NCBI GenBank assembly: GCA_964016885.1
Contig: OZ024740.1
Location: 176,762,001-176,826,000 of the forward strand
DNA from: Eledone cirrhosa
Lineage: Eukaryota
Reading direction: 5' to 3'
DNA length: 64,000 nucleotides
The notes beneath the pieces were generated by a model. That model was not told where the DNA came from. It searched no databases and saw nothing but the letters and a program-made list of their open reading frames with translations. This document shows positions 1 through 64,000 of the stretch, piece after piece (the stretch's first letter is position 1; every line of letters begins with the position of its first letter). A program made the position numbers and the translations under genes.

Positions 1-13
1 ATCACAAGATACG

Positions 14-20
14 TATAAAA
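14..20 (+). promoter_or_regulatory. TATA-like element upstream of Val-CAC (all units)
   Basis: TATAAAA at -38..-32 from the tRNA 5' end; position is compatible with TFIIIB, but the background is AT-rich. Confidence 0.3.
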
Positions 21-51
21 GAAAGTTATTCGATATCGAGAAAAGGAAATT

Positions 52-124
52 GGTTCCATAGTGTAGTGGTTATCACGTCTGCTTCACACGCGGATGGCCG
101 CGAGTTCGAAACTCGCTGGACCCT
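52..124 (+). tRNA. trnV: tRNA-Val(CAC), unit 1
   Basis: Cloverleaf, anticodon CAC at 85-87; T3.C70 acceptor mismatch. Confidence 0.7.
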
Positions 125-132
125 TTATTACA

Positions 133-277
133 ATATTTTTAATCTACAGTAGCTCTTCTAATTGATGAGTACCCATATAATTTTAATCTACACTAGCTCT
201 TCTAAGACATGAGTGCCCATATAATTTTAAATTACACCAAGTCTTTCAAGCCATCAGTGTCCATATACTTGTCAATC
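133..277 (+). repeat. 44-bp minisatellite, 3 copies plus a partial copy (every unit; 2 copies in units 31-32)
   Basis: ATA(T/A)TTTTAA(TC/AT)TACA...CCAT at 133, 177, 221. Confidence 0.9.
136..140 (+). terminator. Pol III oligo-T terminator for Val-CAC (representative)
   Basis: T5 run 12 nt after the gene. Confidence 0.55.
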
Positions 278-337
278 AATAATACAGATTAATGTCAGTA
301 AATGCGTTTAAAATTATGTGAGAAAGTGACTAGTTTT

Positions 338-410
338 GCTTACATAGTTTAGTGATTACCACGCCAGATTCACAAGCAGGTGATCGCGATTCCGAAACTT
401 TCTGTAATTC
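338..410 (+). pseudogene. Decayed tRNA-Val(CAC) relic (representative; in every unit)
   Basis: GCTTACA TA GTTT AGTGATTAC CAC G CCAGA TT CAC AA GCAGG TGATC GCGAT TCCGAAA CTTTC TGTAATT aligns without gaps to the CAC gene; stems are broken. Confidence 0.85.
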
Positions 411-886
411 TTGTTTCAATTAAAAACAAACTCCAGTTGTGTCATGATCCTTAGATGCTTAAATATTTTTCCATCTATCAACACGGTAGCTTCAATGTGC
501 AGTGGTGTATATTTTATCCTATACTAGATTTGGGCCGACTTGTGCCATACAACAGTACTGAAGTATTTCCTAAATATATATAAGCGCTAATTAAATTTAG
601 ATTGTTAATGAACTGCTTCCAAATTTCCTCATCATGAAACCAAACGATGGCTTATTACCAAATAAAGCCTTATTAAACATGTTTACATGTCCAGTAAATT
701 AGTGAAAGATGTATAAATGTAGAGGTAGCTGATTAGCCATGTAAATACTACGTTATGAACGATTTTATATATTTAGCATCTACGTCAAGAACTTTGTTTA
801 ACGCATGTCAGCCTAGTTTCAGCATTGGTAAAGTATGTAGCAATGGATATTGACATTGGCAAGGATATGATCAGGAGAAATATCTG

Positions 887-894
887 AAAAAAAA
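887..894 (-). terminator. Pol III oligo-T terminator for Val-TAC (representative)
   Basis: A8 on + (T8 on -) about 10 nt after the gene 3' end. Confidence 0.75.
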
Positions 895-903
895 GGAGTG
901 TCA

Positions 904-976
904 AAGTTGCAGCATGTTTCGAACTCACGACTATCTGCGTGTAAAGGAGATATGAGAACCACTACACCATGGAACC
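904..976 (-). pseudogene. trnV: tRNA-Val(TAC), damaged allele, unit 1
   Basis: TAC loop; lesions in anticodon stem, A21 and acceptor stem. Confidence 0.7.
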
Positions 977-1094
977 ACAGACTTGTTTTAGAACAAATAT
1001 TGCCTCAATACATTTACATTTTATCAATTATGCTGAATTGAAACAAATGTAAATGTATTTGATAAGACAATGTTTCTTCTTTCATTCTTCATCT

Positions 1095-1167
1095 GGTTCC
1101 ATGGTGTAGTGGTTATCACATCTGCTTAACACGCAGAAGGTCGTGAGTTCGAAACTCGCTGGAACCT
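1095..1167 (+). tRNA. trnV: tRNA-Val(AAC), unit 1
   Basis: GGTTCCA/TGGAACC acceptor, TCTGC-TTAACAC-GCAGA, GTTCGAAAC; intact. Confidence 0.9.
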
Positions 1168-1176
1168 CCAATTATC

Positions 1177-1183
1177 TTTTTTT
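1177..1183 (+). terminator. Pol III oligo-T terminator for Val-AAC (representative)
   Basis: T7 run 10 nt after the gene. Confidence 0.75.
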
Positions 1184-1476
1184 CTTTTACTTCTATTTCA
1201 TTTTGTGTTGTGTTTGATAGAATCTCACATATTTCTTCTGACTATCTCCTCGACAATTTCTATATCCAGTACTGTATATTTTACCTTACATATGCTGGAA
1301 CTCTGCTGACCTGTGTTTTACAAAAGTACTTGACGTAGATTCGAAATATTAATAACCAATCATTATATAGTATTTATATTGTTAATCAATTGCTTCCAAA
1401 TTTATACAAGTTTCACTAAATTAACAGAAATATAAACGTGTTTCATAATGCAATATACGTTAGGAAGCAACCGTTT

Positions 1477-1550
1477 GATACAATGTTGTAGTGTGTATCT
1501 CATTTGCAAAAAACACGAGATGATCGCGGATTCGACATTCGCAGCAAACA
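1477..1550 (+). pseudogene. Second decayed tRNA-Val relic (representative; in every unit)
   Basis: GATACAATGTTGTAGTGTGTATCTCATTTGC...TGATCGCGGATTCGA(A/C)ATTCGCAGCAAAC aligns to GGTTCCATGGTGTAGTGGTTATCACATCTGC...GGTCGTGAGTTCGAAACTCGCTGGAACC; anticodon loop eroded. Confidence 0.75.
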
Positions 1551-1937
1551 CTCTTAATTTTCAATCTGAATAAATAATATATTTATTTACATTTTTCATA
1601 TCTTGCGTCATTTTAGTTGTTAATGAGGATTGAATATTTTAAAGTTATTGAAAAACACATGTTATACAGTAGGTTTGAAAACAAAATATATTTGTTCCTA
1701 TGTTCCAGAATAGAACATATTTGTAGAAATGATTGCCTAAATATGTCCGACCATGTGCTAAACAATGACAATCATAATTTAGAAAGAAATTGCTCCTTAT
1801 AAACTTATTTAGTTTGATAATCTTCAAACAAGCTTTTTTCTGTGTAGATTGTACATGTAAGTATTAGTGAAGTGAAATATTTCAAAATCACAAGATACGT
1901 ATAAAAGAAAGTTATTCGATATCGAGAAAAGGAAATT

Positions 1938-2010
1938 GGTTCCATAGTGTAGTGGTTATCACGTCTGCTTCACACGCGGAAGGTCGCGAGTTCGAAACTC
2001 GCTGGAGCCC
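1938..2010 (+). tRNA. trnV: tRNA-Val(CAC), unit 2
   Basis: Intact cloverleaf. Confidence 0.85.
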
Positions 2011-2788
2011 TTATTACAATATTTTAATCTACAGTAGCTCTTCTAATTCATGAGTGCCCATATCATTTTAATCTACACTAGCTCTTCTAAGACATGAGTG
2101 CCCATATAATTTTAAATTACACTAGGTCTTTCAAGCGATCAGTGTCCATATATTTGTCAATCAATAATACAGATTAATGTCAGTAAATGCGTTTAAAATT
2201 ATGTGAGAAAGTGACTAGTTTTGCTTACATAGTTTAGTGATTACCACGCCAGATTCACAAGCAGGAGATCGCGATTCCGAAACTTTCTGTAATTCTTGTT
2301 TCAATTAAAAACAATCTCCAGTTGTGTCATGATCCTTAGATGCTTAAATATTTTTCCATCTATCAACACGGTAGCTTCAATGTGCAGTGGTGTATATTTT
2401 ATCCTATACTAGATTTGGGCTGACTTGTGCCATACAACAGTACTGAAGTATTTCCTAAATATATATAACCGCTAATTAAATTTAGATTGTTAATGAACTG
2501 CTTCCAAATTTCCTCATCATGAAACCAATCGATGGCTTATTACCAAATATAGCCTTATTAAACATGTTTACATGTCCAGTAAATTAGTGAAAGATGTATA
2601 AATGTAGAGGTAGCTGATTAGCCATGTAAATACTACGTTATGAACGATTTTATATATTTAGCATCTACGTCAAGAACTTTGTTTAACGCATGTCAGCCTA
2701 GTTTCAGCATTGGTAAAGTATGTAGCAATGGATATTGACATTGGCAAGGATATGATCAGGAGAAATATCTGAAAAAAAAGGAGTGTCA

Positions 2789-2861
2789 AAGTTCCAGCAT
2801 GTTTCGAACTCACGACCATCTGCGTGTAAAGCAGATATGATAACCGCTACACCATTGAACC
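2789..2861 (-). tRNA. trnV: tRNA-Val(TAC), unit 2
   Basis: TAC loop; C6A acceptor mismatch, weak T-stem. Confidence 0.55.
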
Positions 2862-2979
2862 ACAGACTTGTTTTAGAACAAATATTGCCTCAATACATTT
2901 ACATTTTATCAATTATGCTGAATTGAAACAAATGTAAATGTATTTGATAAGACAATGTTTCTTCTTTCATTCTTCATCT

Positions 2980-3052
2980 GGTTCCATGGTGTAGTGGTTA
3001 TCACATCTGCTTAACACGCAGAAGGTCGTGAGTTCGAAACTCGCTGGAACCT
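2980..3052 (+). tRNA. trnV: tRNA-Val(AAC), unit 2
   Basis: Intact. Confidence 0.9.
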
Positions 3053-3824
3053 TCAATTATCTTTTTTTTTGTTTTACTTCTATTTCATTTTGTGTTGTGT
3101 TTGATAGAATCTCACATATTTCTTCTGACTATCTCCTCGACAATTTCTATATCCAGTACTGTATATTTTACCTTACATATGCTGGAACTCTGCTGACCTG
3201 TGTTTTACAAAAGTACTTGACGTAGATTCGAAATATTAATAACCAATCAATATATAGTATTTATATTGTTAATCAACTGCTTCCAAATTTATACAACTTT
3301 CACTAAATTAACAGAAATATAAACGTGTTTCATAATGCAATATATGTTAGGAAGCAACCGTTTGATACAATGTTGTAGTGTGTATCTCATTTGCAAGAAA
3401 CACGAGATGATCGCGGATTCGAAATTCGCAGCAAACACTCTTAATTTTCAATCTGAATAAATAATATATTTATTTACATTTTTCATACCTTGCGTCATTT
3501 TAGTTGTCAATGAGGATTGAATACTTCAATGTTATTGAAAAACACATGTTATACAGTAGGCTTGAAAATAAAATATATTTGTTCCTATGTTCCAGAATAG
3601 AACATATTTGTAGAAATGATTGCCTAAATATGTCCAACCATGTGCTAAACAATGACAATCATAATTTAGAAAGAAATTGCTCTTTATAAACATATTTAGT
3701 TTGATAATCTACACACAAGCCTTTTTCTGTGTAGATTGTACATATAAATATTAGTGAAGTGAAATATTTCAAAATCACAAGATACGTATAAAAGAAAGTT
3801 ATTCGATATCGAGAAAAGGAAATT

Positions 3825-3897
3825 GGTTCCATAGTGTAGTGGTTATCACGTCTGCTTCACACGCGGAAGGTCGCGAGTTCGAGACTCGCTCGAGACT
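3825..3897 (+). pseudogene. trnV: tRNA-Val(CAC), broken acceptor, unit 3
   Basis: 3' strand TCGAGAC gives two mismatches. Confidence 0.65.
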
Positions 3898-4677: not shown

Positions 4678-4750
4678 AAGTTCCAGCATGTTTCGAACTC
4701 ACGACCATCTGCGTGTAAAGCAGATATGATAACCACTACACCATTGAACC
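4678..4750 (-). tRNA. trnV: tRNA-Val(TAC), unit 3
   Basis: C6A mismatch, weak T-stem. Confidence 0.55.
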
Positions 4751-4868
4751 ACAGACTTGCTTTAGAACAAATATTGCCTCAATACATTTACATGTTATCA
4801 ATTATGCTGAATTGAAACAAATGTAAATATATTTGGTAAGACAATGTTTCTTCATTCATTCTTCATCT

Positions 4869-4941
4869 GGTTCCATGGTGTAGTGGTTATCACATCTGCT
4901 TAACACGCAGAAGGTCGTGAGTTCGCAACTCGCTGGAACCT
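4869..4941 (+). tRNA. trnV: tRNA-Val(AAC), unit 3
   Basis: A58C B-box lesion. Confidence 0.7.
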
Positions 4942-8452: not shown

Positions 8453-8525
8453 AAGTTCCAGCATGTTTCGAACTCACGACCATCTGCGTGTAAAGCAGAT
8501 ATGATAACCACTACACCATGGAACC
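8453..8525 (-). tRNA. trnV: tRNA-Val(TAC), unit 5
   Basis: Array-consensus TAC copy; weak T-stem. Confidence 0.7.
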
Positions 8526-17029: not shown

Positions 17030-17102
17030 GGTTCCATAGTGTAGTGGTTATCACGTCTGCTTCACACGCGGAAGGTCGCGAGTTCGAAACTCGCTGGAGC
17101 CT
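17030..17102 (+). tRNA. trnV: tRNA-Val(CAC), unit 10
   Basis: Intact. Confidence 0.85.
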
Positions 17103-20032: not shown

Positions 20033-20802
20033 TCAATTATCTTTTTTTGTTTTACTTCTATTTCATTTTGTGTTGTGTTTCATAGAATCTCACATATTTC
20101 TTCTGACTATCTCCTCGACAATTTCTATATCCAGTACTGTATATTTTCCCTATCATATGCTGGAACTCTGCTGACCTGTGTTTTACACATGTACTTGACG
20201 TAGATTCGAAATATTAATAACCAATCATTATATAGTATTTATATTGTTAATGAACTGCTTCCAAATTTATACAACTTTCACTAAATTAACAGAAATATAA
20301 ACGTGTTTCATAATGCAATATATGTTAGGAAGCAACCGTTTGATACAATGTTGTAGTGTGTATCTCATTTGCAAAAAACTCGAGATGATCGCGGATTCGA
20401 AATTCGCAGCAAACACTCTTAAATTTCAATCTGAATAAATTATATATTTATTTACATTTTTCATATCTTGCGTCATTTTAGTTGTCAATGAGGATTGAAT
20501 ACATTAATGTTATTGAAAAACACATGTTATACAGTAGGTTTGAAAATAAAATATATTTGTTCCTATGTTCCAGAATAGAACATATTTGTAGAAATGATTA
20601 CCTAAATATGTCTGACCATGTGCTAAACAATGATAATCATAATTTAGAAAGAAATTGCTCTTTATAAACATATTTAGTTTGATAATCTACACACAAGCTT
20701 TTTTCTGTGTAGATTGTACATATAAATATTAGTGAAGTGAAATATTTCAAAATCACAAGATACGTATAAAAGAAAGTTATTCGATATCGAGAAAAGGAAA
20801 TT

Positions 20803-20875
20803 GGTTCCATAGTGTAGTGGTTATCACGTCTGCTTCACACGCGGATGGCCGCGAGTTCGAAACTCGCTGGACCCT
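20803..20875 (+). tRNA. trnV: tRNA-Val(CAC), unit 12
   Basis: As unit 1. Confidence 0.7.
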
Positions 20876-21654
20876 TTATTACAATATTTTTAATCTACAG
20901 TAGCTCTTCTAATTGATGAGTACCCATATAATTTTAATCTACACTAGCTCTTCTAAGACATGAGTGCCCATATAATTTTAAATTACACCAAGTCTTTCAA
21001 GCCATCAGTGTCCATATACTTGTCAATCAATAATACAGATTAATGTCAGTAAATGCGTTTAAAATTATGTGAGAAAGTGACTAGTTTTGCTTACATAGTT
21101 TAGTGATTACCACGCCAGATTAACAAGCAGGTGATCGCGATTCCGAAACTTTCTGTAATTCTTGTTTCAATTAAAAACAAACTCCAGTTGTGTCATGATC
21201 CTTAGATGCTTAAATATTTTTCCATCTATCAACACGGTAGCTTCAATGTGCAGTGGTGTATATTTTATCCTATACTAGATTTGGGCCGACTTGTGCCATA
21301 CAACAGTACTGAAGTATTTCCTAAATATATATAAGCGCTAATTAAATTTAGATTGTTAATGAACTGCTTCCAAATTTCCTCATCATGAAACCAAACGATG
21401 GCTTATTACCAAATAAAGCCTTATTAAACATGTTTACATGTCCAGTAAATTAGTGAAAGATGTATAAATGTAGAGGTAGCTGATTAGCCATGTAAATACT
21501 ACGTTATGAACGATTTTATATATTTAGCATCTACGTCAAGAACTTTGTTTAACGCATGTCAGCCTAGTTTCAGCATTGGTAAAGTATGTAGCAATGGATA
21601 TTGACATTGGCAAGGATATGATCAGGAGAAATATCTGAAAAAAAAGGAGTGTCA

Positions 21655-21727
21655 AAGTTGCAGCATGTTTCGAACTCACGACTATCTGCGTGTAAAGGAG
21701 ATATGAGAACCACTACACCATGGAACC
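21655..21727 (-). pseudogene. trnV: tRNA-Val(TAC), damaged allele, unit 12
   Basis: Same lesions as unit 1. Confidence 0.7.
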
Positions 21728-21845
21728 ACAGACTTGTTTTAGAACAAATATTGCCTCAATACATTTACATTTTATCAATTATGCTGAATTGAAACAAATG
21801 TAAATGTATTTGATAAGACAATGTTTCTTCTTTCATTCTTCATCT

Positions 21846-21918
21846 GGTTCCATGGTGTAGTGGTTATCACATCTGCTTAACACGCAGAAGGTCGTGAGTT
21901 CGAAACTCGCTGGAACCT
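21846..21918 (+). tRNA. trnV: tRNA-Val(AAC), unit 12
   Basis: Intact. Confidence 0.9.
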
Positions 21919-22688
21919 CCAATTATCTTTTTTTCTTTTACTTCTATTTCATTTTGTGTTGTGTTTGATAGAATCTCACATATTTCTTCTGACTATCTCC
22001 TCGACAATTTCTATATCCAGTACTGTATATTTTACCTTACATATGCTGGAACTCTGCTGACCTGTGTTTTACAAAAGTACTTGACGTAGATTCGAAATAT
22101 TAATAACCAATCATTATATAGTATTTATATTGTTAATCAATTGCTTCCAAATTTATACAAGTTTCACTAAATTAACAGAAATATAAACGTGTTTCATAAT
22201 GCAATATACGTTAGGAAGCAACCGTTTGATACAATGTTGTAGTGTGTATCTCATTTGCAAAAAACACGAGATGATCGCGGATTCGACATTCGCAGCAAAC
22301 ACTCTTAATTTTCAATCTGAATAAATAATATATTTATTTACATTTTTCATATCTTGCGTCATTTTAGTTGTTAATGAGGATTGAATATTTTAAAGTTATT
22401 GAAAAACACATGTTATACAGTAGGTTTGAAAACAAAATATATTTGTTCCTATGTTCCAGAATAGAACATATTTGTAGAAATGATTGCCTAAATATGTCCG
22501 ACCATGTGCTAAACAATGACAATCATAATTTAGAAAGAAATTGCTCCTTATAAACTTATTTAGTTTGATAATCTTCAAACAAGCTTTTTTCTGTGTAGAT
22601 TGTACATGTAAGTATTAGTGAAGTGAAATATTTCAAAATCACAAGATACGTATAAAAGAAAGTTATTCGATATCGAGAAAAGGAAATT

Positions 22689-22761
22689 GGTTCCATAGTG
22701 TAGTGGTTATCACGTCTGCTTCACACGCGGAAGGTCGCGAGTTCGAAACTCGCTGGAGCCC
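22689..22761 (+). tRNA. trnV: tRNA-Val(CAC), unit 13
   Basis: Intact. Confidence 0.85.
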
Positions 22762-23539
22762 TTATTACAATATTTTAATCTACAGTAGCTCTTCTAATTC
22801 ATGAGTGCCCATATCATTTTAATCTACACTAGCTCTTCTAAGACATGAGTGCCCATATAATTTTAAATTACACTAGGTCTTTCAAGCGATCAGTGTCCAT
22901 ATATTTGTCAATCAATAATACAGATTAATGTCAGTAAATGCGTTTAAAATTATGTGAGAAAGTGACTAGTTTTGCTTACATAGTTTAGTGATTACCACGC
23001 CAGATTCACAAGCAGGAGATCGCGATTCCGAAACTTTCTGTAATTCTTGTTTCAATTAAAAACAATCTCCAGTTGTGTCATGATCCTTAGATGCTTAAAT
23101 ATTTTTCCATCTATCAACACGGTAGCTTCAATGTGCAGTGGTGTATATTTTATCCTATACTAGATTTGGGCTGACTTGTGCCATACAACAGTACTGAAGT
23201 ATTTCCTAAATATATATAACCGCTAATTAAATTTAGATTGTTAATGAACTGCTTCCAAATTTCCTCATCATGAAACCAATCGATGGCTTATTACCAAATA
23301 TAGCCTTATTAAACATGTTTACATGTCCAGTAAATTAGTGAAAGATGTATAAATGTAGAGGTAGCTGATTAGCCATGTAAATACTACGTTATGAACGATT
23401 TTATATATTTAGCATCTACGTCAAGAACTTTGTTTAACGCATGTCAGCCTAGTTTCAGCATTGGTAAAGTATGTAGCAATGGATATTGACATTGGCAAGG
23501 ATATGATCAGGAGAAATATCTGAAAAAAAAGGAGTGTCA

Positions 23540-23612
23540 AAGTTCCAGCATGTTTCGAACTCACGACCATCTGCGTGTAAAGCAGATATGATAACCGCTA
23601 CACCATTGAACC
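23540..23612 (-). tRNA. trnV: tRNA-Val(TAC), unit 13
   Basis: C6A mismatch. Confidence 0.55.
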
Positions 23613-23730
23613 ACAGACTTGTTTTAGAACAAATATTGCCTCAATACATTTACATTTTATCAATTATGCTGAATTGAAACAAATGTAAATGTATTTGATA
23701 AGACAATGTTTCTTCTTTCATTCTTCATCT

Positions 23731-23803
23731 GGTTCCATGGTGTAGTGGTTATCACATCTGCTTAACACGCAGAAGGTCGTGAGTTCGAAACTCGCTGGAA
23801 CCT
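23731..23803 (+). tRNA. trnV: tRNA-Val(AAC), unit 13
   Basis: Intact. Confidence 0.9.
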
Positions 23804-24575
23804 TCAATTATCTTTTTTTTTGTTTTACTTCTATTTCATTTTGTGTTGTGTTTGATAGAATCTCACATATTTCTTCTGACTATCTCCTCGACAATTTCTA
23901 TATCCAGTACTGTATATTTTACCTTACATATGCTGGAACTCTGCTGACCTGTGTTTTACAAAAGTACTTGACGTAGATTCGAAATATTAATAATCAATCA
24001 ATATATAGTATTTATATTGTTAATCAACTGCTTCCAAATTTATACAACTTTCACTAAATTAACAGAAATATAAACGTGTTTCATAATGCAATATATGTTA
24101 GGAAGCAACCGTTTGATACAATGTTGTAGTGTGTATCTCATTTGCAAGAAACACGAGATGATCGCGGATTCGAAATTCGCAGCAAACACTCTTAATTTTC
24201 AATCTGAATAAATAATATATTTATTTACATTTTTCATACCTTGCGTCATTTTAGTTGTCAATGAGGATTGAATACTTCAATGTTATTGAAAAACACATGT
24301 TATACAGTAGGCTTGAAAATAAAATATATTTGTTCCTATGTTCCAGAATAGAACATATTTGTAGAAATGATTGCCTAAATATGTCCAACCATGTGCTAAA
24401 CAATGACAATCATAATTTAGAAAGAAATTGCTCTTTATAAACATATTTAGTTTGATAATCTACACACAAGCCTTTTTCTGTGTAGATTGTACATATAAAT
24501 ATTAGTGAAGTGAAATATTTCAAAATCACAAGATACGTATAAAAGAAAGTTATTCGATATCGAGAAAAGGAAATT

Positions 24576-24648
24576 GGTTCCATAGTGTAGTGGTTATCAC
24601 GTCTGCTTCACACGCGGAAGGTCGCGAGTTCGAGACTCGCTCGAGACT
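24576..24648 (+). pseudogene. trnV: tRNA-Val(CAC), broken acceptor, unit 14
   Basis: TCGAGAC 3' strand. Confidence 0.65.
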
Positions 24649-25428
24649 TTATTAATATATTTTTACTCTACAGTAGCTCTTCTAATTCCTGAGTACCCAT
24701 ATAATTTTAATCTACACTAGCTCTTCTAAGACATGAGTGCCCATATAATTTTAAATTACACTAGGTCTTTCAAGCCATCAGTGTCCATATATTTGTCAAT
24801 CAATAATACAGATTAATGTCAGTAAATGCGTTTAAAATTATGTGAGAAAGTGACTAGTTTTGCTTACATAGTTTAGTGATTACCACAACAGATTCACAAG
24901 CAGGAGATCGCGATTCCGAAACTTTCTGTAATTCTTGTTTCAATTAAAAACAATCTCCAGTTGTGTCATGATCCTTAGATGCTTAAATATTTTTCCATCT
25001 ATCAACACGGTAGCTTCAATGTGCAGTGGTGTATATTTTATCCTATACTAGATTTGGGCTGACTTGTGCCATACAACAGTACTGAAGTATTTCCTAAATA
25101 TATATAACCGCTAATTAAATTTAGATTGTTAATGAACTGCTTCCAAATTTCCTCATCATGACACCAAACGATGGCTTATTACCAAATATAGCCTTATTAA
25201 ACATGTTTACATGTCCAGTAAATTAGTGAAAGATGTATAAATGTAGAGGTAGCTGATTAGCCATGTAAATACTACGTTATGAACGATTTTATATATTTAG
25301 CATCTACGTCAAGAACTTTGTTTAACGCACATCAGCCTAGTTTCAGCATTGGTAAAGTATGTAGCAATGGATATTGACATTGGCAAGGAAATGATCAGCA
25401 GAAATATCTGAAAAAAAAAGGAGTGTCA

Positions 25429-25501
25429 AAGTTCCAGCATGTTTCGAACTCACGACCATCTGCGTGTAAAGCAGATATGATAACCACTACACCATGGAAC
25501 C
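25429..25501 (-). tRNA. trnV: tRNA-Val(TAC), unit 14
   Basis: Array-consensus copy. Confidence 0.7.
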
Positions 25502-25619
25502 ACAGACTTGCTTTAGAACAAATATTGCCTCAATACATTTACATGTTATCAATTATGCTGAATTGAAACAAATGTAAATATATTTGGTAAGACAATGTTT
25601 CTTCATTCATTCTTCATCT

Positions 25620-25692
25620 GGTTCCATGGTGTAGTGGTTATCACATCTGCTTAACACGCAGAAGGTCGTGAGTTCGCAACTCGCTGGAACCT
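25620..25692 (+). tRNA. trnV: tRNA-Val(AAC), unit 14
   Basis: A58C. Confidence 0.7.
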
Positions 25693-26464
25693 TCAATTAT
25701 CTTTTTTTTTGTTTTACTTCTATTTCATTTTGTGTTGTGTTTGATAGAATCTCACATATTTCTTCTGACTATCTCCTCGACAATTTCTATATCCAGTAAT
25801 GTATATTTTACCTTACATATGCTGGAACTCTGCTGACCTGTGTTTTACAAAAGTACTTGACGTAGATTCGAAATATTAATAACCAATCAATATATAGTAT
25901 TTATATTGTTAATCAACTGCTTCCAAATTTATACAACTTTCACTAAATTAACAGAAATATAAACGTGTTTCATAATGCAATATATGTTAGGAAGCAACCG
26001 TTTGATACAATGTTGTAGTGTGTATCTCATTTGCAAGAAACACGAGATGATCGCGGATTCGAAATTCGCAGCAAACACTCTTAATTTTCAATCTGAATAA
26101 ATAATATATTTATTTACATTTTTCATACCTTGCGTCATTTTAGTTGTCAATGAGGATTGAATACTTCAATGTTATTGAAAAACACATGTTATACAGTAGG
26201 CTTGAAAATAAAATATATTTGTTCCTATGTTCCAGAATAGAACATATTTGTAGAAATGATTGCCTAAATATGTCCAACCATGTGCTAAACAATGACAATC
26301 ATAATTTAGAAAGAAATTGCTCTTTATAAACATATTTAGTTTGATAATCTACACACAAGCCTTTTTCTGTGTAGATTGTACATATAAATATTAGTGAAGT
26401 GAAATATTTCAAAATCACAAGATACGTATAAAAGAAAGTTATTCGATATCGAGAAAAGGAAATT

Positions 26465-26537
26465 GGTTCCATAGTGTAGTGGTTATCACGTCTGCTTCAC
26501 ACGCGGAAGGTCGCGAGTTCGAGACTCGCTCGAGACT
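26465..26537 (+). pseudogene. trnV: tRNA-Val(CAC), broken acceptor, unit 15
   Basis: TCGAGAC 3' strand. Confidence 0.65.
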
Positions 26538-27316
26538 TTATTAATATATTTTTACTCTACAGTAGCTCTTCTAATTCCTGAGTACCCATATAATTTTAAT
26601 CTACACTAGCTCTTCTAAGACATGAGTGCCCATATAATTTTAATTTACACTAGGTCTTTCAAGCCATCAGTGTCCATATATTTGTCAATCAATAATACAG
26701 ATTAATGTCAGTAAATGCGTTTAAAATTATGTGAGAAAGTGACTAGTTTTGCTTACATAGTTTAGTGATTACCACAACAGATTCACAAGCAGGAGATCGC
26801 GATTCCGAAACTTTCTGTAATTCTTGTTTCAATTAAAAACAATCTCCAGTTGTGTCATGATCCTTAGATGCTTAAATATTTTTCCATCTATCAACACGGT
26901 AGCTTCAATGTGCAGTGGTGTATATTTTATCCTATACTAGATTTGGGCTGACTTGTGCCATACAACAGTACTGAAGTATTTCCTAAATATATATAACCGC
27001 TAATTAAATTTAGATTGTTAATGAACTGCTTCCAAATTTCCTCATCATGAAACCAAACGATGGCTTATTACCAAATATAGCCTTATTAAACATGTTTACA
27101 TGTCCAGTAAATTAGTGAAAGATGTATAAATGTAGAGGTAGCTGATTAGCCATGTAAATACTACGTTATGAACGATTTTATATATTTAGCATCTACGTCA
27201 AGAACTTTGTTTAACGCACATCAGCCTAGTTTCAGCATTGGTAAAGTATGTAGCAATGGATATTGACATTGGCAAGGAAATGATCAGCAGAAATATCTGA
27301 AAAAAAAGGAGTGTCA

Positions 27317-27389
27317 AAGTTCCAGCATGTTTCGAACTCACGACCATCTGCGTGTAAAGCAGATATGATAACCACTACACCATTGAACC
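27317..27389 (-). tRNA. trnV: tRNA-Val(TAC), unit 15
   Basis: C6A mismatch. Confidence 0.55.
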
Positions 27390-27507
27390 ACAGACTTGTT
27401 TTAGAACAAATATTGCCTCAATACATTTACATGTTATCAATTATGCTGAATTGAAACAAATGTAAATGTATTTGGTAAGACAATGTTTCTTCATTCATTC
27501 TTCATCT

Positions 27508-27580
27508 GGTTCCATGGTGTAGTGGTTATCACATCTGCTTAACACGCAGAAGGTCGTGAGTTCGAAACTCGCTGGTACCT
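27508..27580 (+). tRNA. trnV: tRNA-Val(AAC), unit 15
   Basis: T4.T69 mismatch. Confidence 0.8.
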
Positions 27581-28351
27581 TCAATTATCTTTTTTTTGTT
27601 TTACTTCTATTTCATTTTGTGTTGTGTTTGATAGAATCTCACATATTTCTTCTGACTATCTCCTCGACAATTTCTATATCCAGTACTGTATATTTTACCT
27701 TACATATGCTGGAACTCTGCTGACCTGTGTTTTACAAAAGTACTTGACGTAGATTCGAAATATTAATAACCAATCAATATATAGTATTTATATTGTTAAT
27801 CAACTGCTTCCAAATTTATACAACTTTCACTAAATTAACAGAAATATAAACGTGTTTCATAATGCAATATATGTTAGGAAGCAACCGTTTGATACAATGT
27901 TGTAGTGCGTATCTCATTTGCAAGAAACACGAGATGATCGCGGATTCGAAATTCGCAGCAAACACTCTTAATTTTCAATCTGAATAAATAATATATTTAT
28001 TTACATTTTTCATACATTGCGTCATTTTAGTTGTCAATGAGGATTGAATACTTCAATGTTATTGAAAAACACATGTTATACAGTAGGCTTGAAAATAAAA
28101 TATATTTGTTCCTATGTTCCAGAATAGAACATATTTGTAGAAATGATTGCCTAAATATGTCCAACCATGTGCTAAACAATGACAATCATAATTTAGAAAG
28201 AAATTGCTCTTTATAAACATATTTAGTTTGATAATCTACACACAAGCCTTTTTCTGTGTAGATTGTACATATAAATATTAGTGAAGTGAAATATTTCAAA
28301 ATCACAAGATACGTATAAAAGAAAGTTATTCGATATCGAGAAAAGGAAATT

Positions 28352-28424
28352 GGTTCCATAGTGTAGTGGTTATGACGTCTGCTTCACACGCGGAAGGTCG
28401 CGAGTTCGAGACTCGCTCGAGACT
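28352..28424 (+). pseudogene. trnV: tRNA-Val(CAC), broken acceptor, unit 16
   Basis: TCGAGAC plus C23G. Confidence 0.7.
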
Positions 28425-29203
28425 TTATTAATATATTTTTACACTACAGTAGCTCTTCTAATTCCTGAGTACCCATATAATTTTAATCTACACTAGCTCT
28501 TCTAAGACATGAGTGCCCATATAATTTTAATTTACACTAGGTCTTTCAAGCCATCAGTGTCCATATATTTGTCAATCAATAATACAGATTAATGTCAGTA
28601 AATGCGTTTAAAATTATGTGAGAAAGTGACTAGTTTTGCTTACATAGTTTAGTGATTACCACAACAGATTCACAAGCAGGAGATCGCGATTCCGAAACTT
28701 TCTGTAATTCTTGTTTCAATTAAAAACAATCTCCAGTTGTGTCATGATCCTTAGATGCTTAAATATTTTTCCATCTATCAACACGGTAGCTTCAATGTGC
28801 AGTGGTGTATATTTTATCCTATACTAGATTTGGGCCGACTTGTGCCATACAACAGTACTGAAGTATTTCCTAAATATATATAACCGCTAATAAAATTTAG
28901 ATTGTTAATGAACTGCTTCCAAATTTCCTCATCATGAAACCAAACGATGGCATATTACCAAATATAGCCTTATTAAACATGTTTACATGTGCAGTAAATT
29001 AGTGAAAGATGTATAAATGTAGAGGTAGCTGATTAGCCATGTAAATACTACGTTATGAACGATTTTATATATTTAGCGTCTACGTCAAGAACTTTGTTTA
29101 ACGCACATCAGCCTAGTTTCAGCATTGGTAAAGTATGTAGCAATGGATATTGACATTGGCAAGGAAATGATCAGCAGAAATATCTGAAAAAAAAGGAGTG
29201 TCA

Positions 29204-29276
29204 AAGTTCCAGCATGTTTCGAACTCACGACCATCTGCGTGTAAAGCAGATATGATAACCACTACACCATGGAACC
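29204..29276 (-). tRNA. trnV: tRNA-Val(TAC), unit 16
   Basis: Array-consensus copy. Confidence 0.7.
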
Positions 29277-29394
29277 ACAGACTTGTTTTCGGACAAATAT
29301 TGCCTCAATACATTTACATTTTATCAATTTTGCTGAATTGAAACAAATGTAAATATATTTGATCAGACAATGTTTCTTGTTTCATTCTTCATCT

Positions 29395-29467
29395 GGTTCC
29401 ATGGTGTAGTGGTTATCACATCTGCTTAACACGCAGAAGGTCGTGAGTTCGAAATTCGCTGGAACCT
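29395..29467 (+). tRNA. trnV: tRNA-Val(AAC), unit 16
   Basis: C61T. Confidence 0.78.
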
Positions 29468-30240
29468 TCAATTATCTTTTTTTTTGTTTTACTTCTATTT
29501 GATTTTGTGTTGTGTTTGATAGAATCTCACATATTTCTTCTGACTATCTCCTCGACAATTTCTATATCCAGTACTGTATATTTTACCTATCATATGCTGG
29601 AACTCTGGTGCCCTGTGTTTTACAAAAGTACTTGACGTAGATTCGAAATATTAATAACCAATCATTATATAGTATTTATATTGTTAATCAATTGCTTCCA
29701 AATTTATACAAGTTTCACTAAATTAACAGAAATATAATCGTGTTTCATAATGCAATATACGTTAGGAAGCAACCGTTTGATACAATGTTGTAGTGTGTAT
29801 CTCATTTGCAAAAAACACGAGATGATCGCGGATTCGAAATTCGCAGCAAACACTCTTAATTTTCAATCTGAATAAATAATATATTTATTTACATTTTTCA
29901 TATCTTGCGTCATTTTAGTTGTCAATGAGGATTGAATACTTTTAACGTTATTGAAAAACACATGTTATACAGTAGGTTTGAAAATAAAATATATTTGTTC
30001 CTATGTTCCAGAATAGAACATATTTGTAGAAATGATTGCCTAAATATGTCCGACCATGTGCTAAACAATGACAATCATAATTTAGAAAGAAATTGCTCCT
30101 TATAAACTTATTTAGTTTGATAATCTTCACACAAGCTTTTTTCTGTGTAGATTGTACATGTAAGTATTAGTGAAGTGAAATATTTCAAAATCACAAGATA
30201 CGTATAAAAGAAAGTTATTCGATATCGAGAAAAGGAAATT

Positions 30241-30313
30241 GGTTCCATAGTGTAGTGATTATCACGTCTGCTTCACACGCGGATGGTCGCGAGTTGGAAA
30301 CTCGCTGGACCCT
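30241..30313 (+). pseudogene. trnV: tRNA-Val(CAC), A/B-box mutant, unit 17
   Basis: G19A, C56G. Confidence 0.7.
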
Positions 30314-31092
30314 TTATTACAATATTTTTAATCTACAGTAGCTCTTCTAATTGATGAGTACCCATATAATTTTAATCTACACTAGCTCTTCTAAGACATG
30401 AGTGCCCATATAATTTTGAATTACACTAGGTCTTTCAAGCGATCAGTGTCCATATATTTGTCAATCAATAATACAGATTAATGTCAGTAAATGCGTTTAA
30501 AATTATGTGAGAAAGTGACTAGTTTTGCTTACATAGTTTAGTGATTACCACGCCAGATTCACAAGCAGGAGATCGCGATTCCGAAACTTTCTGTAATTCT
30601 TGTTTCAATTAAAAACAATCTCCAGTTGTGTCATGATCCTTAGATGCTTAAATATTTTTCCATCTATCAACACGGTAGCTTCAATGTGCAGTGGTGTATA
30701 TTTTATCCTATACTAGATTTGGGCTGACTTGTGCCATACAACAGTACTGAAGTATTTCCTAAATATATATAACCGCTAATTAAATTTAGATTGTTAATGA
30801 ACTGCTTCCAAATTTCCTCATCATGAAACCAAACGATGGCTTATTACCAAATATAGCCTTATTAAACATGTTTACATGTCCAGTAAATTAGTGAAAGATG
30901 TATAAATGTAGAGGTAGCTGATTAGCCATGTAAATACTACGTTATGAACGATTTTATATATTTAGCATCTACGTCAAGAACTTTGTTTAACGCATGTCAG
31001 CCTAGTTTCAGCATTGGTAAAGTATGTAGCAATGGATATTGACATTGGCAAGGATATGATCAGGAGAAATATCTGAAAAAAAAGGAGTGTCA

Positions 31093-31165
31093 AAGTTCCA
31101 GCATGTTTCGAACTCACGACCATCTGCGTGTAAAGCAGATATGATAACCACTACACCATTGAACC
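31093..31165 (-). tRNA. trnV: tRNA-Val(TAC), unit 17
   Basis: C6A mismatch. Confidence 0.55.
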
Positions 31166-31283
31166 ACAGACTTGTTTTAGAACAAATATTGCCTCAATAC
31201 ATTTACATGTTATCAATTATGCTGAATTGAAACAAATGTAAATGTATTTGGTAAGACAATGTTTCTTCATTCATTCTTCATCT

Positions 31284-31356
31284 GGTTCCATGGTGTAGTG
31301 GTTATCACATCTGCTTAACACGCAGAAGGTCGTGAGTTCGAAACTCGCTGGTACCT
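31284..31356 (+). tRNA. trnV: tRNA-Val(AAC), unit 17
   Basis: T4.T69 mismatch. Confidence 0.8.
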
Positions 31357-32127
31357 TCAATTATCTTTTTTTTGTTTTACTTCTATTTCATTTTGTGTTG
31401 TGTTTGATAGAATCTCACATATTTCTTCTGACTATCTCCTCGACAATTTCTATATCCAGTACTGTATATTTTACCTTACATATGCTGGAACTCTGCTGAC
31501 CTCTGTTTTACAAAAGTACTTGACGTAGATTCGAAATATTAATAACCAATCAATATATAGTATTTATATTGTTAATCAACTGCTTCCAAATTTATACAAC
31601 TTTCACTAAATTAACAGAAATATAAACGTGTTTCATAATGCAATATATGTTAGGAAGCAACCGTTTGATACAATGTTGTAGTGCGTATCTCATTTGCAAG
31701 AAACACGAGATGATCGCGGATTCGAAATTCGCAGCAAACACTCTTAATTTTCAATCTGAATAAATAATATATTTATTTACATTTTTCATACATTGCGTCA
31801 TTTTAGTTGTCAATGAGGATTGAATACTTCAATGTTATTGAAAAACACATGTTATACAGTAGGCTTGAAAATAAAATATATTTGTTCCTATGTTCCAGAA
31901 TAGAACATATTTGTAGAAATGATTGCCTAAATATGTCCAACCATGTGCTAAACAATGACAATCATAATTTAGAAAGAAATTGCTCTTTATAAACATATTT
32001 AGTTTGATAATCTACACACAAGCCTTTTTCTGTGTAGATTGTACATATAAATATTAGTGAAGTGAAATATTTCAAAATCACAAGATACGTATAAAAGAAA
32101 GTTATTCGATATCGAGAAAAGGAAATT

Positions 32128-32200
32128 GGTTCCATAGTGTAGTGGTTATCACGTCTGCTTCACACGCGGAAGGTCGCGAGTTCGAGACTCGCTCGAGACT
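32128..32200 (+). pseudogene. trnV: tRNA-Val(CAC), broken acceptor, unit 18
   Basis: TCGAGAC 3' strand. Confidence 0.65.
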
Positions 32201-32979
32201 TTATTAATATATTTTTACACTACAGTAGCTCTTCTAATTCCTGAGTACCCATATAATTTTAATCTACACTAGCTCTTCTAAGACATGAGTGCCCATATAA
32301 TTTTAAATTACACTAGGTCTTTCAAGCCATCAGTGTCCATATATTTGTCAATCAATAATACAGATTAATGTCAGTAAATGCGTTTAAAATTATGTGAGAA
32401 AGTGACTAGTTTTGCTTACATAGTTTAGTGATTACCACAACAGATTCACAAGCAGGAGATCGCGATTCCGAAACTTTCTGTAATTCTTGTTTCAATTAAA
32501 AACAATCTCCAGTTGTGTCATGATCCTTAGATGCTTAAATATTTTTCCATCTATCAACACGGTAGCTTCAATGTGCAGTGGTGTATATTTTATCCTATAC
32601 TAGATTTGGGCCGACTTGTGCCATACAACAGTACTGAAGTATTTCCTAAATATATATAACCGCTAATAAAATTTAGATTGTTAATGAACTGCTTCCAAAT
32701 TTCCTCATCATGAAACCAAACGATGGCATATTACCAAATATAGCCTTATTAAACATGTTTACATGTGCAGTAAATTAGTGAAAGATGTATAAATGTAGAG
32801 GTAGCAGATTAGCCATGTAAATACTACGTTATGAACGATTTTATATATTTAGCGTCTACGTCAAGAACTTTGTTTAACGCACATCAGCCTAGTTTCAGCA
32901 TTGGTAAAGTATGTAGCAATGGATATTGACATTGGCAAGGAAATGATCAGCAGAAATATCTGAAAAAAAAGGAGTGTCA

Positions 32980-33052
32980 AAGTTCCAGCATGTTTCGAAC
33001 TCACGACCATCTGCGTGTAAAGCAGATATGATAACCACTACACCATGGAACC
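32980..33052 (-). tRNA. trnV: tRNA-Val(TAC), unit 18
   Basis: Array-consensus copy. Confidence 0.7.
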
Positions 33053-33170
33053 ACAGACTTGTTTTCGGACAAATATTGCCTCAATACATTTACATTTTAT
33101 CAATTTTGCTGAATTGAAACAAATGTAAATATATTTGATCAGACAATGTTTCTTGTTTCATTCTTCATCT

Positions 33171-33243
33171 GGTTCCATGGTGTAGTGGTTATCACATCTG
33201 CTTAACACGCAGAAGGTCGTGAGTTCGAAATTCGCTGGAACCT
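33171..33243 (+). tRNA. trnV: tRNA-Val(AAC), unit 18
   Basis: C61T. Confidence 0.78.
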
Positions 33244-34016
33244 TCAATTATCTTTTTTTTTGTTTTACTTCTATTTGATTTTGTGTTGTGTTTGATAGAA
33301 TCTCACATATTTCTTCTGACTATCTCCTCGACAATTTCTATATCCAGTACTGTATATTTTACCTATCATATGCTGGAACTCTGGTGCCCTGTGTTTTACA
33401 AAAGTACTTGACGTAGATTCGAAATATTAATAACCAATCATTATATAGTATTTATATTGTTAATCAATTGCTTCCAAATTTATACAAGTTTCACTAAATT
33501 AACAGAAATATAATCGTGTTTCATAATGCAATATACGTTAGGAAGCAACCGTTTGATACAATGTTGTAGTGTGTATCTCATTTGCAAAAAACACGAGATG
33601 ATCGCGGATTCGAAATTCGCAGCAAACACTCTTAATTTTCAATCTGAATAAATAATATATTTATTTACATTTTTCATATCTTGCGTCATTTTAGTTGTCA
33701 ATGAGGATTGAATACTTTTAACGTTATTGAAAAACACATGTTATACAGTAGGTTTGAAAATAAAATATATTTGTTCCTATGTTCCAGAATAGAACATATT
33801 TGTAGAAATGATTGCCTAAATATGTCCGACCATGTGCTAAACAATGACAATCATAATTTAGAAAGAAATTGCTCCTTATAAACTTATTTAGTTTGATAAT
33901 CTTCACACAAGCTTTTTTCTGTGTAGATTGTACATGTAAGTATTAGTGAAGTGAAATATTTCAAAATCACAAGATACGTATAAAAGAAAGTTATTCGATA
34001 TCGAGAAAAGGAAATT

Positions 34017-60310: not shown

Positions 60311-60383
60311 GGTTCCATAGTGTAGTGGTTATCACGTCTGCTTCACACGCGGAAGGTCGCGAGTTCGAAACTCGCTGGAGCCT
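60311..60383 (+). tRNA. trnV: tRNA-Val(CAC), unit 33
   Basis: Intact. Confidence 0.85.
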
Positions 60384-61161
60384 TTATTACAATATTTTAC
60401 TCTACAGTAGCTCTTCTAATTCATGAGTACCCATATAATTTTAATCTACACTAGCTCTTCTAAGACATGAGTGCCCATATAATTTTAAATTACACTAGGT
60501 CTTTCAAGCCATCAGTGTCCATATAATTGTCAATCAATAATACAGATCAATGTCAGTAAATGCGTTTATAATTATGTGAGAAAGTGACTAGCTTTGCTTA
60601 TATAATTTAGTGATTACCACGCCAGATTCACAAGCAGGAGATCGCCATTCCGAAACTTTCTGTAATCCTTGTTTCAATTAAAAACAAACTCCAGTTGTGT
60701 CATGATCCTTAGATGCTTAAATATTTTTCCATCTATCAACACGGTAGCTTCAATGTGCAGTGGTGTATATTTTATCCTATACTAGATTTGGGCCGACTTG
60801 TGCCATACAACAGTACTGAAGTATTTCCTAAATATATATAACCGCTAATTAAATTTAGATTGTTAATGAACTGCTTCCAAATTTCCTCATCATGAAACCA
60901 AACGATGGCTTATTACCAAATATAGCCTTATTAAACATGTTTACATGTCCAGTAAATTAGTGAAAGATGTATAAATGTAGAGGTAGCTGATTAGCCATGT
61001 AAATACTACGTTATGAACGATTTTATATATTTAGCGTCTACGTCAAGAACTTTGTTTAACGCATGTCAGCCTAGTTTCAGCATTGGTAAAGTATGTAGCA
61101 ATGGATATTGACATTGGCAAGGATATGATCAGGAGAAATATCTGAAAAAAAAGGAGTGTCA

Positions 61162-61234
61162 AAGTTCCAGCATGTTTCGAACTCACGACCATCTGCGTGT
61201 AAAGCAGATATGATAACCACTACACCATGGAACC
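61162..61234 (-). tRNA. trnV: tRNA-Val(TAC), unit 33
   Basis: Array-consensus copy. Confidence 0.7.
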
Positions 61235-61352
61235 ACAGACTTGTTTTAAAACAAATATTGCCTCAATACATTTACATTTTATCAATTATGCTGAATTGAA
61301 ACAAATGTAAATGTATTTGATAAGACAATGTTTCTTCTTTCATTCTTCATAT

Positions 61353-61425
61353 GGTTCCATGGTGTAGTGGTTATCACATCTGCTTAACACGCAGAAGGTG
61401 GTGAGTTCGAAACTCGCTGGAACCT
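61353..61425 (+). tRNA. trnV: tRNA-Val(AAC), unit 33
   Basis: C48G. Confidence 0.78.
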
Positions 61426-62195
61426 TCAATTATCTTTTTTTCTTTTACTTCTATTTCATTTTGTGTTGTGTTTGATAGAATCTCACATATTTCATCTGAC
61501 TATCCCATCGACAATTTCTATATCCAGTACTGTATATTTTACCTTACATATGCTGGAACTCTGCTGACCTGTGTTTTACAAAAGTACTTGACGTAGATTC
61601 GAAATATTAATAACCAATCATTATATAGTATTTATATTGTTAATCAACTGCTTCCAAATTTATACAACTTTCACTAAATTAACAGAAATATAAACGTGTT
61701 TCATAATGCAATATATGTTAGGAAGCAACCGTTTGATACAATGTTGTAGTGTGTATCTCATTTGCAAAAAACTCGAGATGATCGCGGATTCGAAATTCGC
61801 AGCAAACACTCTTAAATTTCAATCTGAATAAATTATATATTTATTTACATTTTTCATATCTTGCGTCATTTTAGTTGTCAATGAGGATTGAATACATTAA
61901 TGTTATTGAAAAACACATGTTATACAGTAGGTTTGAAAATAAAATATATTTGTTCCTATGTTCCAGAATAGAACATATTTGTAAAAATGATTACCTAAAT
62001 ATGTCCGACCATGTGCTAAACAATGATAATCATAATTTAGAAAGAAATTGCTCTTTATAAACATATTTAGTTTGATAATCTACACACAAGCTTTTTTCTG
62101 TGTAGATTGTACATATAAATATTAGTGAAGTGAAATATTTCAAAATCACAAGATACGTATAAAAGAAAGTTATTCGATATCGAGAAAAGGAAATT

Positions 62196-62268
62196 GGTTC
62201 CATAGTGTAGTGGTTATCACGTCTGCTTCACACGCGGAAGGTCGCGAGTTCGAAACTCGCTGGAGCCT
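62196..62268 (+). tRNA. trnV: tRNA-Val(CAC), unit 34
   Basis: Intact. Confidence 0.85.
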
Positions 62269-63047
62269 TTATTACAATATTTTACTCTACAGTAGCTCTT
62301 CTAATTCATGAGTACCCATATAATTTTAATCTACACTAGCTCTTCTAAGACATGAGTGCCCATATAATTTTAAATTACACTAGGTCTTTCAAGCCATCAG
62401 TGTCCATATAATTGTCAATCAATAATACAGATCAATGTCAGTAAATGCGTTTATAATTATGTGAGAAAGTGACTAGCTTTGCTTATATAATTTAGTGATT
62501 ACCACGCCAGATTCACAAGCAGGAGATCGCCATTCCGAAACTTTCTGTAATCCTTGTTTCAATTAAAAACAAACTCCAGTTGTGTCATGATCCTTAGATG
62601 CTTAAATATTTTTCCATCTATCAACACGGTAGCTTCAATGTGCAGTGGTGTATATTTTATCCTATACTAGATTTGGGCCGACTTGTGCCATACAACAGTA
62701 CTGAAGTATTTCCTAAATATATATAACCGCTAATTAAATTTAGATTGTTAATGAACTGCTTCCAAATTTCCTCATCATGAAACCAAACGATGGCTTATTA
62801 CCAAATATAGCCTTATTAAACATGTTTACATGTCCAGTAAATTAGTGAAAGATATATAAATGTAGAGGTAGCTGATTAGCCATGTAAATACTACGTTATG
62901 AACGATTTTATATATTTAGCATCAACGTGAAGAACATAGTTTAACGCATGTCAGCCTAGTTTCAGCATTGGTAAAGTATGTAGCAATGGATATTGACATT
63001 GGCAATGATATGATCAGGAGAAATATCTGAAAAAAAAAGGAGTGTCA

Positions 63048-63120
63048 AAGTTCCAGCATGTTTCGAACTCACGACCATCTGCGTGTAAAGCAGATATGAT
63101 AACCACTACACCATGGAACC
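63048..63120 (-). tRNA. trnV: tRNA-Val(TAC), unit 34
   Basis: Array-consensus copy. Confidence 0.7.
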
Positions 63121-63238
63121 ACAGACTTGTTTTAGAACAAATATTGCCTCAATACATTTACATTTTATCAATTATGCTGAATTGAAACAAATGTAAATGT
63201 ATTTGATAAGACAATGTTTCTTCTTTCATTCTTCATCT

Positions 63239-63311
63239 GGTTCCATGGTGTAGTGGTTATCACATCTGCTTAACACGCAGAAGGTCGTGAGTTCGAAACT
63301 CGCTGGAACCT
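63239..63311 (+). tRNA. trnV: tRNA-Val(AAC), unit 34
   Basis: Intact. Confidence 0.9.
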
Positions 63312-64000
63312 TCAATTATCTTTTTTTCTATTTCATTTTGTGTTGTGTTTGATAGAATCTCACATATTTCATCTGACTATCCCATCGACAATTTCTATAT
63401 CCAGTACTGTATATTTTACCTTACATATGCTGGAACTCTGCTGACCTGTGTTTTACAAAAGTACTTGACGTAGATTCGAAATATTAATAACCAATCATTA
63501 TATAGTATTTATATTGTTAATCAACTGCTTCCAAATTTATACAACTTTCACTAAATTAACAGAAATATAAACGTGTTTCATAATGCAATATATGTTAGGA
63601 AGCAACCGTTTGATACAATGTTGTAGTGTGTATCTCATTTGCAAAAAACTCGAGATGATCGCGGATTCGAAATTCGCAGCAAACACTCTTAAATTTCAAT
63701 CTGAATAAATTATATATTTATTTACATTTTTCATATCTTGCGTCATTTTAGTTGTCAATGAGGATTGAATACATTAATGTTATTGAAAAACACATGTTAT
63801 ACAGTAGGTTTGAAAATAAAATATATTTGTTCCTATGTTCCAGAATAGAACATATTTGTAGAAATGATTACCTAAATATGTCTGACCATGTGCTAAACAA
63901 TGATAATCATAATTTAGAAAGAAATTGCTCTTTATAAACATATTTAGTTTGATAATCTACACACAAGCTTTTTTCTGTGTAGATTGTACATATAAATATT

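Follow-up and report, generated by a model that had tools for sequence, protein, structure and literature searches.

The 64,000-bp stretch of Eledone cirrhosa DNA analyzed here (hereafter the window; C1:176,762,001–176,826,000, where C1 is the 443-Mb contig OZ024740.1 of a 3.0-Gb assembly) lies within a head-to-tail array of ~1.89-kb units that carry transfer RNA (tRNA) genes for valine (Val). With a probability of roughly 70%, judged from the sequence, this is a tandem tRNA array derived from one Val gene family, partly transcribed and partly decaying, in a genome that holds arrays for individual isotypes, and not a valine-specific device. An ordinary birth-and-death tRNA cluster is the best reading of the array, which is likely to be a main source of Val tRNA with inosine at position 34. 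The parts that deserve follow-up are a uridine at discriminator base 73 (U73) of the Val genes and a mutation footprint within the array.

Three Val slots per unit and their integrity

The original prediction of 34 tandem units, each with Val-CAC (+), Val-TAC (−), and Val-AAC (+), was confirmed by alignment, with the slots in fixed order. The array also extends past both window ends as predicted; 63 full units were counted from contiguous stretches at C1:176,748,863–176,867,494 (118.6 kb), of which 34 occupy window positions 12..64000. The 102 Val copies proposed for the window stand as aligned slots, and gene calling recovered somewhat fewer. ARAGORN called 99/102 slots: 36 as Val-AAC, 32 as Val-CAC, 29 as Val-TAC, and 2 whose anticodon loop has 8 nt. 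Its three misses are the TAC slots of units 1, 12, and 22, where the damage is too great (unit 1: 26.6 Rfam bits, below the 29-bit cut-off); the TAC slots of units 24 and 26 carry an AAC anticodon. In the CAC slots, the anticodon loop is 8 nt long in units 31 and 32, and C56 is missing from units 24, 26, 27, 29, and 30. The match to the Rfam tRNA family reached 62 bits (E 5e-12, far past chance), and tRNA was the only family above threshold in the first 8 kb. A35 and C36 were found in a 7-nt anticodon loop in 100/102 window slots, the other 2 being those with the 8-nt loop. The predicted lack of GAC and of any non-Val 7-nt-loop anticodon holds inside the window; outside it, two Val bodies of the array have switched to TGC (an Ala anticodon), and one AAC-to-TAC switch is present.

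Intactness was scored on 20 stem pairs and 14 invariant bases in the 63 units. An intact cloverleaf was obtained for 42/63 AAC and 29/63 CAC slots, and 29 AAC copies are identical to the family body. None of the TAC slots (0/63) is intact because an A52.A62 mismatch is fixed in the T-stem of all 63. For the same reason, no window unit (0/34) carries three strictly intact genes. The units do not form a clean isoacceptor cassette. When A52.A62 was forgiven, 3/34 window units and 13/63 units of the whole array had all three slots sound; 11/63 units have no intact slot at all. The AAC slot (example in unit 2, 2980..3052, + strand) has the multi-locus family body as its majority sequence, is intact in 15/34 window units, and is followed by a T-run 7–11 bp downstream in 63/63 units. 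The CAC slot (unit 10, 17030..17102, + strand) forms a cloverleaf with five differences from the family body, including the U3.G70 and U29.G41 wobbles, and is intact in 9/34 window units. The TAC slot (unit 5, 8453..8525, − strand) retains A/B boxes and a T-run terminator, has G1.U72 as its majority pair, and gives a non-cloverleaf structure as its lowest-energy fold. In the 63 units, a T-run terminator (T4+ within 12 bp) follows 186/189 slots, and the internal promoter boxes for RNA polymerase III (Pol III) retain their invariant bases in most copies.

The description of three genes per unit is correct for the slots and overlooked a decayed fourth Val copy, which was found in 34/34 window units. 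This copy (unit 2, 2223..2295, + strand) begins ~285 bp after the CAC slot start in every unit, forms no cloverleaf (fold z 0.16), and varies at the background rate.

Other tRNA arrays and the Val gene pool

Arrays were sampled for Val, Pro, Thr, and Asp/Glu among the 20 isotypes. A second Val array of irregular period was located at C1:266,955,333–267,103,599, where 182/187 ARAGORN calls made without introns are Val. It contains a head-to-head pair as in the first array, and AAC and CAC succeed each other irregularly in its plus slot; a unit of the first array matches it over 548 bp at 83%. A Pro-only array at C3:235.94–236.15 Mb repeats a 1.91-kb unit that carries TGG(−) and two AGG(+) genes, and 148/148 calls in 100 kb are Pro. 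An Asp-GTC/Glu-TTC array at C3:277.24–277.42 Mb consists of 135 units of 1.34 kb with head-to-head Glu(−)/Asp(+) genes (275/276 calls Asp/Glu), and a dense Thr-AGT cluster at C1:243.648–243.700 Mb gave 69/80 Thr calls. This indicates that the genome keeps several tRNA types in their own arrays and that the present array is not Val-specific; the specificity in the original prediction, for which arrays of other isotypes were the proposed check, has to be given up.

Several minor features of these arrays were also recorded. The second Val array holds 72 Val-body copies with an AGC (Ala) anticodon and a decayed body, of which 72/72 failed the structure test. The Pro unit shifts from ~5.0 kb to 1.91 kb along its array, with CGG at the far end. 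The Asp/Glu array includes one copy with a TTA (stop) anticodon and two CTC copies. Some calls in the Thr cluster have other anticodons, and the sole Ile-AAT copy viewed in full has a Thr body.

The three isoacceptors share one gene body. Apart from base 34, the AAC gene of the first array shows 0 differences from the TAC and CAC genes of the second array. Five positions separate each of the example CAC and TAC slots from the family body, and the five dispersed Val genes compared differ from it at 7–9. Across the genome, the AAC 3′ half has 55 exact matches, of which 34/55 fall in the first Val array and 9/55 in the second. A motif for a G7-type Val family gave 13 hits, none of them AAC. The genome search with Rfam is no census because only 63 candidates were scored, and a Lys motif gave 1 hit, which is uninformative on Lys arrays.

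These data bear on the proposal of a dosage-amplified cassette, in which the unit would be favored for the joint yield of three Val isoacceptors, perhaps in one tissue or stage. Three anticodons are present in almost every unit, the two Val arrays are large (192 and 182 ARAGORN Val calls, respectively), and a tissue-specific tRNA cluster has a precedent in the available portion of PMC12308677. However, TAC is damaged in all units, few units (the above 13) are sound even with the mismatch forgiven, the Pro, Thr, and Asp/Glu arrays are similar, and AAC and CAC alternate irregularly in the second Val array. In addition, tandem duplication is known to yield neighbors with the same amino acid and different anticodons, as far as PMC12652284 is accessible. 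Selection for such a cassette is hence highly improbable, and a weak form of the dosage idea survives because the array holds most of the exact family-type AAC matches.

Sequence variation and a possible footprint of transcription

Nucleotide diversity (pi) in the window was 4.7% for the CAC body, 3.1% for TAC, and 2.0% for AAC, with 2.6% for the spacer. Composition-adjusted allele ratios of body versus spacer in the 63 units were 1.53, 1.48, and 1.04 for CAC, TAC, and AAC, respectively. The bodies vary as much as the spacers or more, which the original prediction had taken as the mark of an inert satellite. Bodies that diverge at the spacer rate do not by themselves establish an inert satellite, since mutation near tRNA genes is raised by transcription itself. 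Comparison with 96 homologous modules of the second array showed differences of 3.5% for the AAC body, 11.4% for the TAC body, and 25–31% for the flanks. On this comparison, the AAC body is under long-term constraint.

The inner 5′ flank (20 bp upstream) of active tRNA genes diverges fastest, as described in the accessible part of PMC6130373, whose flank definitions were used for our variant counts. The inner 5′ flanks of the three slots contained 30 variants versus 15.6 expected (1.92x), whereas the outer 5′ flanks (next 20 bp) contained 14 versus 15.3. On the 3′ side, 11 variants versus 6.6 expected were counted in the inner flanks and 20 versus 18.7 in the outer flanks. The decayed fourth copy gave 4 versus 5.3 expected; 63 units, each with a dead paralogue, are a built-in control for transcription-linked mutation. 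A similar pattern was observed in the 5′ flanks of the Asp/Glu array, where the inner flanks showed 33 versus 14.3 and the outer flanks 12 versus 13.4. Two other sources of variation were rejected. Slot-to-slot conversion does not account for the body variation, as only 11/86 minor alleles equal the majority base of another slot, and a palindrome does not account for the 5′ excess, as the outer flanks, which also lie within the palindrome arms, are at background. The 5′ footprint hints at transcription without proving it. Together with the constraint on the AAC body, it suggests that the genes are probably transcribed in part and that the array is probably not inert.

An alternative is a silent tRNA-seeded satellite, which would have amplified neutrally and become heterochromatic while the working Val tRNAs come from smaller clusters. 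The body-to-spacer ratios given above agree with it, as do the TAC damage in 63/63 units, the 11/63 units without an intact slot, and the 21/55 exact AAC 3′-half matches that lie outside the first array. Silencing in most tissues is known for the Arabidopsis SYY cluster, according to the portion of PMC12308677 at hand. Against this, the three boxed genes show the variant excess in their bodies and inner 5′ flanks, whereas the decayed copy and the outer flanks do not; the excess recurs in the Asp/Glu array, and the CpG count of the array matches that of neighboring DNA (220–232 per 10 kb). The uniform neutral change without long-term constraint that characterizes an inert satellite was not what we found. 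A silent satellite is therefore considered unlikely.

Another proposal is that the array is maintained as a chromatin boundary or because it binds TFIIIC/condensin, its tRNA output being incidental. The B boxes are intact in most slots, even in the damaged TAC slot, and the human 1q23.3 tRNA repeat was proposed as a boundary in the available text of PMC4041453. However, the B-box positions vary as freely as others (C56, A58, and C61 variants were observed), and no conserved spacer stretch stands out, either within the array by sliding pi or against the second array. Such a structural role is considered very unlikely.

Discriminator base of the Val genes

Base 73 was read in 156 structurally intact Val genes from nine regions, including dispersed genes on C2, C9, C14, and C22. 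U73 was found in 152 and C73 in 4, and A73 in 0. The absence of A73 is a genome-wide Val trait in the genes examined, and not a mark of the array. A73 is described in the accessible part of PMC9976931 as conserved in canonical tRNA-Val and as a strong eukaryotic determinant, with no effect for a viral mimic with wheat-germ valyl-tRNA synthetase (ValRS). Discriminator rules vary between taxa for other tRNAs, as far as the text of PMC3923123 was available.

A second Val family was sought in two ways. The usual animal AAC/CAC anticodon-arm motif gave 0 genome hits. A body-independent Val motif, which would miss G42, another variable loop, or introns, gave 39 hits, and no A73 family was seen among the 30 examined; 12 of these are family genes ending in U, and the other 18 were uncalled by ARAGORN and have failing stems. 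Incompleteness of the assembly is possible, as is a change of the base after transcription. U73 also occurs in some nematode Val genes; the trait may accordingly be older and less unusual. ValRS-like exons were located at two loci, C10:13.418 Mb and C19:22.17–22.19 Mb, which probably correspond to the cytosolic ValRS and its mitochondrial counterpart, or to a related synthetase. In a literature search of titles and abstracts, covering part of the matches and few subscription papers, neither U73 in animal tRNA-Val nor a description of the present Val array locus was found among the matches listed.

If U73 is true of the mature Val tRNAs, they would depart from a textbook identity rule, and it would become possible to test whether ValRS and tRNA-Val co-evolved. 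A stronger reading is that Val identity was rewritten, so that all working Val tRNAs carry U73, the three isoacceptors come from one wobble-swapping body kept in arrays, and the present array is the main inosine-34 source. We regard this reading as possible but less likely than not. Were it true, germline Pol III activity would be legible from one assembly, slot by slot, in the mutation footprint left in the array copies.

Unit anatomy, duplication, and surroundings of the array

The window units are 1,843–1,889 bp long with a typical period of ~1,887 bp and a GC content of 32% (AT-rich). The mean pairwise difference is 2.65% for the 34 window units and ~2.7% across all 63. Each unit is composed of four gene-plus-flank modules that are paralogous to one another; one of them is inverted and one is decayed. 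In unit 2, the decayed copy and its flank (2222–2511) are a 66% direct paralogue of the AAC gene and flank (2979–3290). The TAC and AAC genes lie at the center of an old inverted duplication (2526..3364; 68% over 894 columns), and the 118-bp spacer between them (2862..2979), which contains both 5′ flanks, is a decayed palindrome (75% over 96 bp). Behind the CAC slot, a 44-bp repeat is present in about three copies (2021..2152, + strand), with two copies in unit 31. Units 31 and 32 (window 56,624–58,541) have in common a ~44-bp deletion behind the CAC slot, in addition to the 8-nt loop.

Ten units of the 63-unit array recur near-exactly at an 11-unit period of 20,751 bp. In the window, units 12–18 (20763..34000) are near-identical (0.0–0.1%) to units 1–7, the block of ~20,752–34,000 corresponding to 1–13,200. 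This block could represent either a recent duplication in the genome or a duplication in the assembly; as read from one assembly, the 11-unit duplication suggests a recent change in copy number.

The array is interstitial within the contig and is flanked by decayed, scrambled Val copies over ~3 kb before and ~11 kb after it. A genome search with a spacer probe placed 40/40 scored matches inside the array (40 of 203 candidates were scored). A tRNA-derived short interspersed element (SINE) does not fit, as the genes are clustered, full cloverleaves with terminators, and all scored matches of the spacer probe fall in the array. Elsewhere in the genome, ten dispersed copies of one tRNA-like head were found with varied triplets at the anticodon position (GGC, AGC, GAC, GGT, and GTC) and a common 3′ tail. 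These are likely a tRNA-derived SINE, able to inflate automatic tRNA counts, including false Val-GAC. Of six long open reading frames (ORFs) scanned in the flanks, two are reverse-transcriptase ORFs, located ~50 kb from the array, one per side, and one of them has an endonuclease domain and is LINE-like. The Pfam scan gave no match for the other 4/6, and no host gene was identified among the six. An open frame of 1,000 codons at C1:176,884,733 was without a Pfam match over the first 422 of them.

Proposed origin and points against it

The features above can be accommodated by a simple course of events. A Val gene would have been duplicated and inverted locally to give the head-to-head pair, wobble-base changes would have placed three anticodons on one body, and one 1.89-kb piece would then have been amplified by unequal exchange. 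Such amplification would carry along the state of each slot, with AAC pristine, CAC slightly drifted, TAC damaged, and the fourth copy dead. Pol III would use the internal A/B boxes and the T-run terminators, and transcription would raise the local mutation rate. Selection on a single copy is presumed to be weak because the copies are many, so that intact AAC, and perhaps CAC, copies may supply tRNA while others decay. Since the wobble remolding would have occurred within one family, the full anticodon set would be a by-product and not a designed cassette.

Several observations weigh against this account. Among the units, conservation of the AAC body does not exceed that of the spacer (22 alleles versus 21.2 expected), and its pi of 1.81% versus 2.71% for the spacer lies at the 12th percentile of spacer windows; active tRNA genes are conserved in the body in the accessible part of PMC6130373, a contrast with the array. 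The inner 5′ excess is strongest at the damaged TAC slot, and the CAC slot taken by itself shows no significant excess (7 versus 5.2). In the Pro array (43 units), the 5′ excess is weak and extends to the outer flank (inner 10 versus 6.5, outer 10 versus 6.2). Sense-strand C-to-T changes show no enrichment in the bodies (7 at 47 C sites versus 33 at 222). Because the unit copies share ancestry, the alleles counted cannot be treated as independent mutations, and the Poisson P values are too favorable. Finally, every Val gene examined is without the A73 determinant that PMC9976931, in the part available, rates as strong in eukaryotes.

Comparison with known systems

As an array, the Eledone locus is ordinary, since amino-acid-sorted tandem tRNA clusters are known and the genome has at least four more. 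The tRNA-STR arrays of Entamoeba contain tandem tRNA genes arranged by type, with blocks of short tandem repeats between the genes. The Eledone unit differs in having no such blocks save one of ~3 x 44 bp, and its array is interstitial. The human 1q23.3 repeat mixes amino acids. It has in common with the present array kb-scale head-to-tail units with tRNA genes in tens of copies, as far as described in the available text of PMC4041453. Its unit is 7.3 kb, GC-rich, and has a conserved CTCF site, with 9–43 copies, whereas the Eledone array consists of 63 copies of a 1.89-kb AT-rich unit with one gene family.

Single-isotype or fixed-triplet tandem units with 27–28 copies were reported for the tRNA-Pro and Ser-Tyr-Tyr clusters on Arabidopsis chromosome 1 and the maize tRNA-Ile repeat, in the accessible portions of PMC12652284 and PMC12308677. 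The former also lists, in the same portion, neighbors with the same amino acid and different anticodons for Pro, Val, Thr, and others. Unlike these plant clusters, as far as they are described there, the Eledone array mixes gene orientations, uses one body for its three Val anticodons, and has a fourth, decayed copy per unit. Homogeneous tRNA gene clusters of at least 50 members were found in Nematostella and teleosts, and same-amino-acid neighbors dominate several lineages, with local duplication as the favored cause (PMC2888827); no Val-only three-anticodon unit is described in section 6 of that paper. Isoacceptor remolding, a change of anticodon within an amino-acid family, was described in PMC4981973, where recent alloacceptor switches are mostly pseudogenes according to the part available. 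The two TGC copies in the Eledone array resemble these alloacceptor pseudogenes. Anticodon subgroups are usually clearly separate sequences in the same part of PMC4981973, whereas the AAC, CAC, and TAC genes of Eledone are built on one body.

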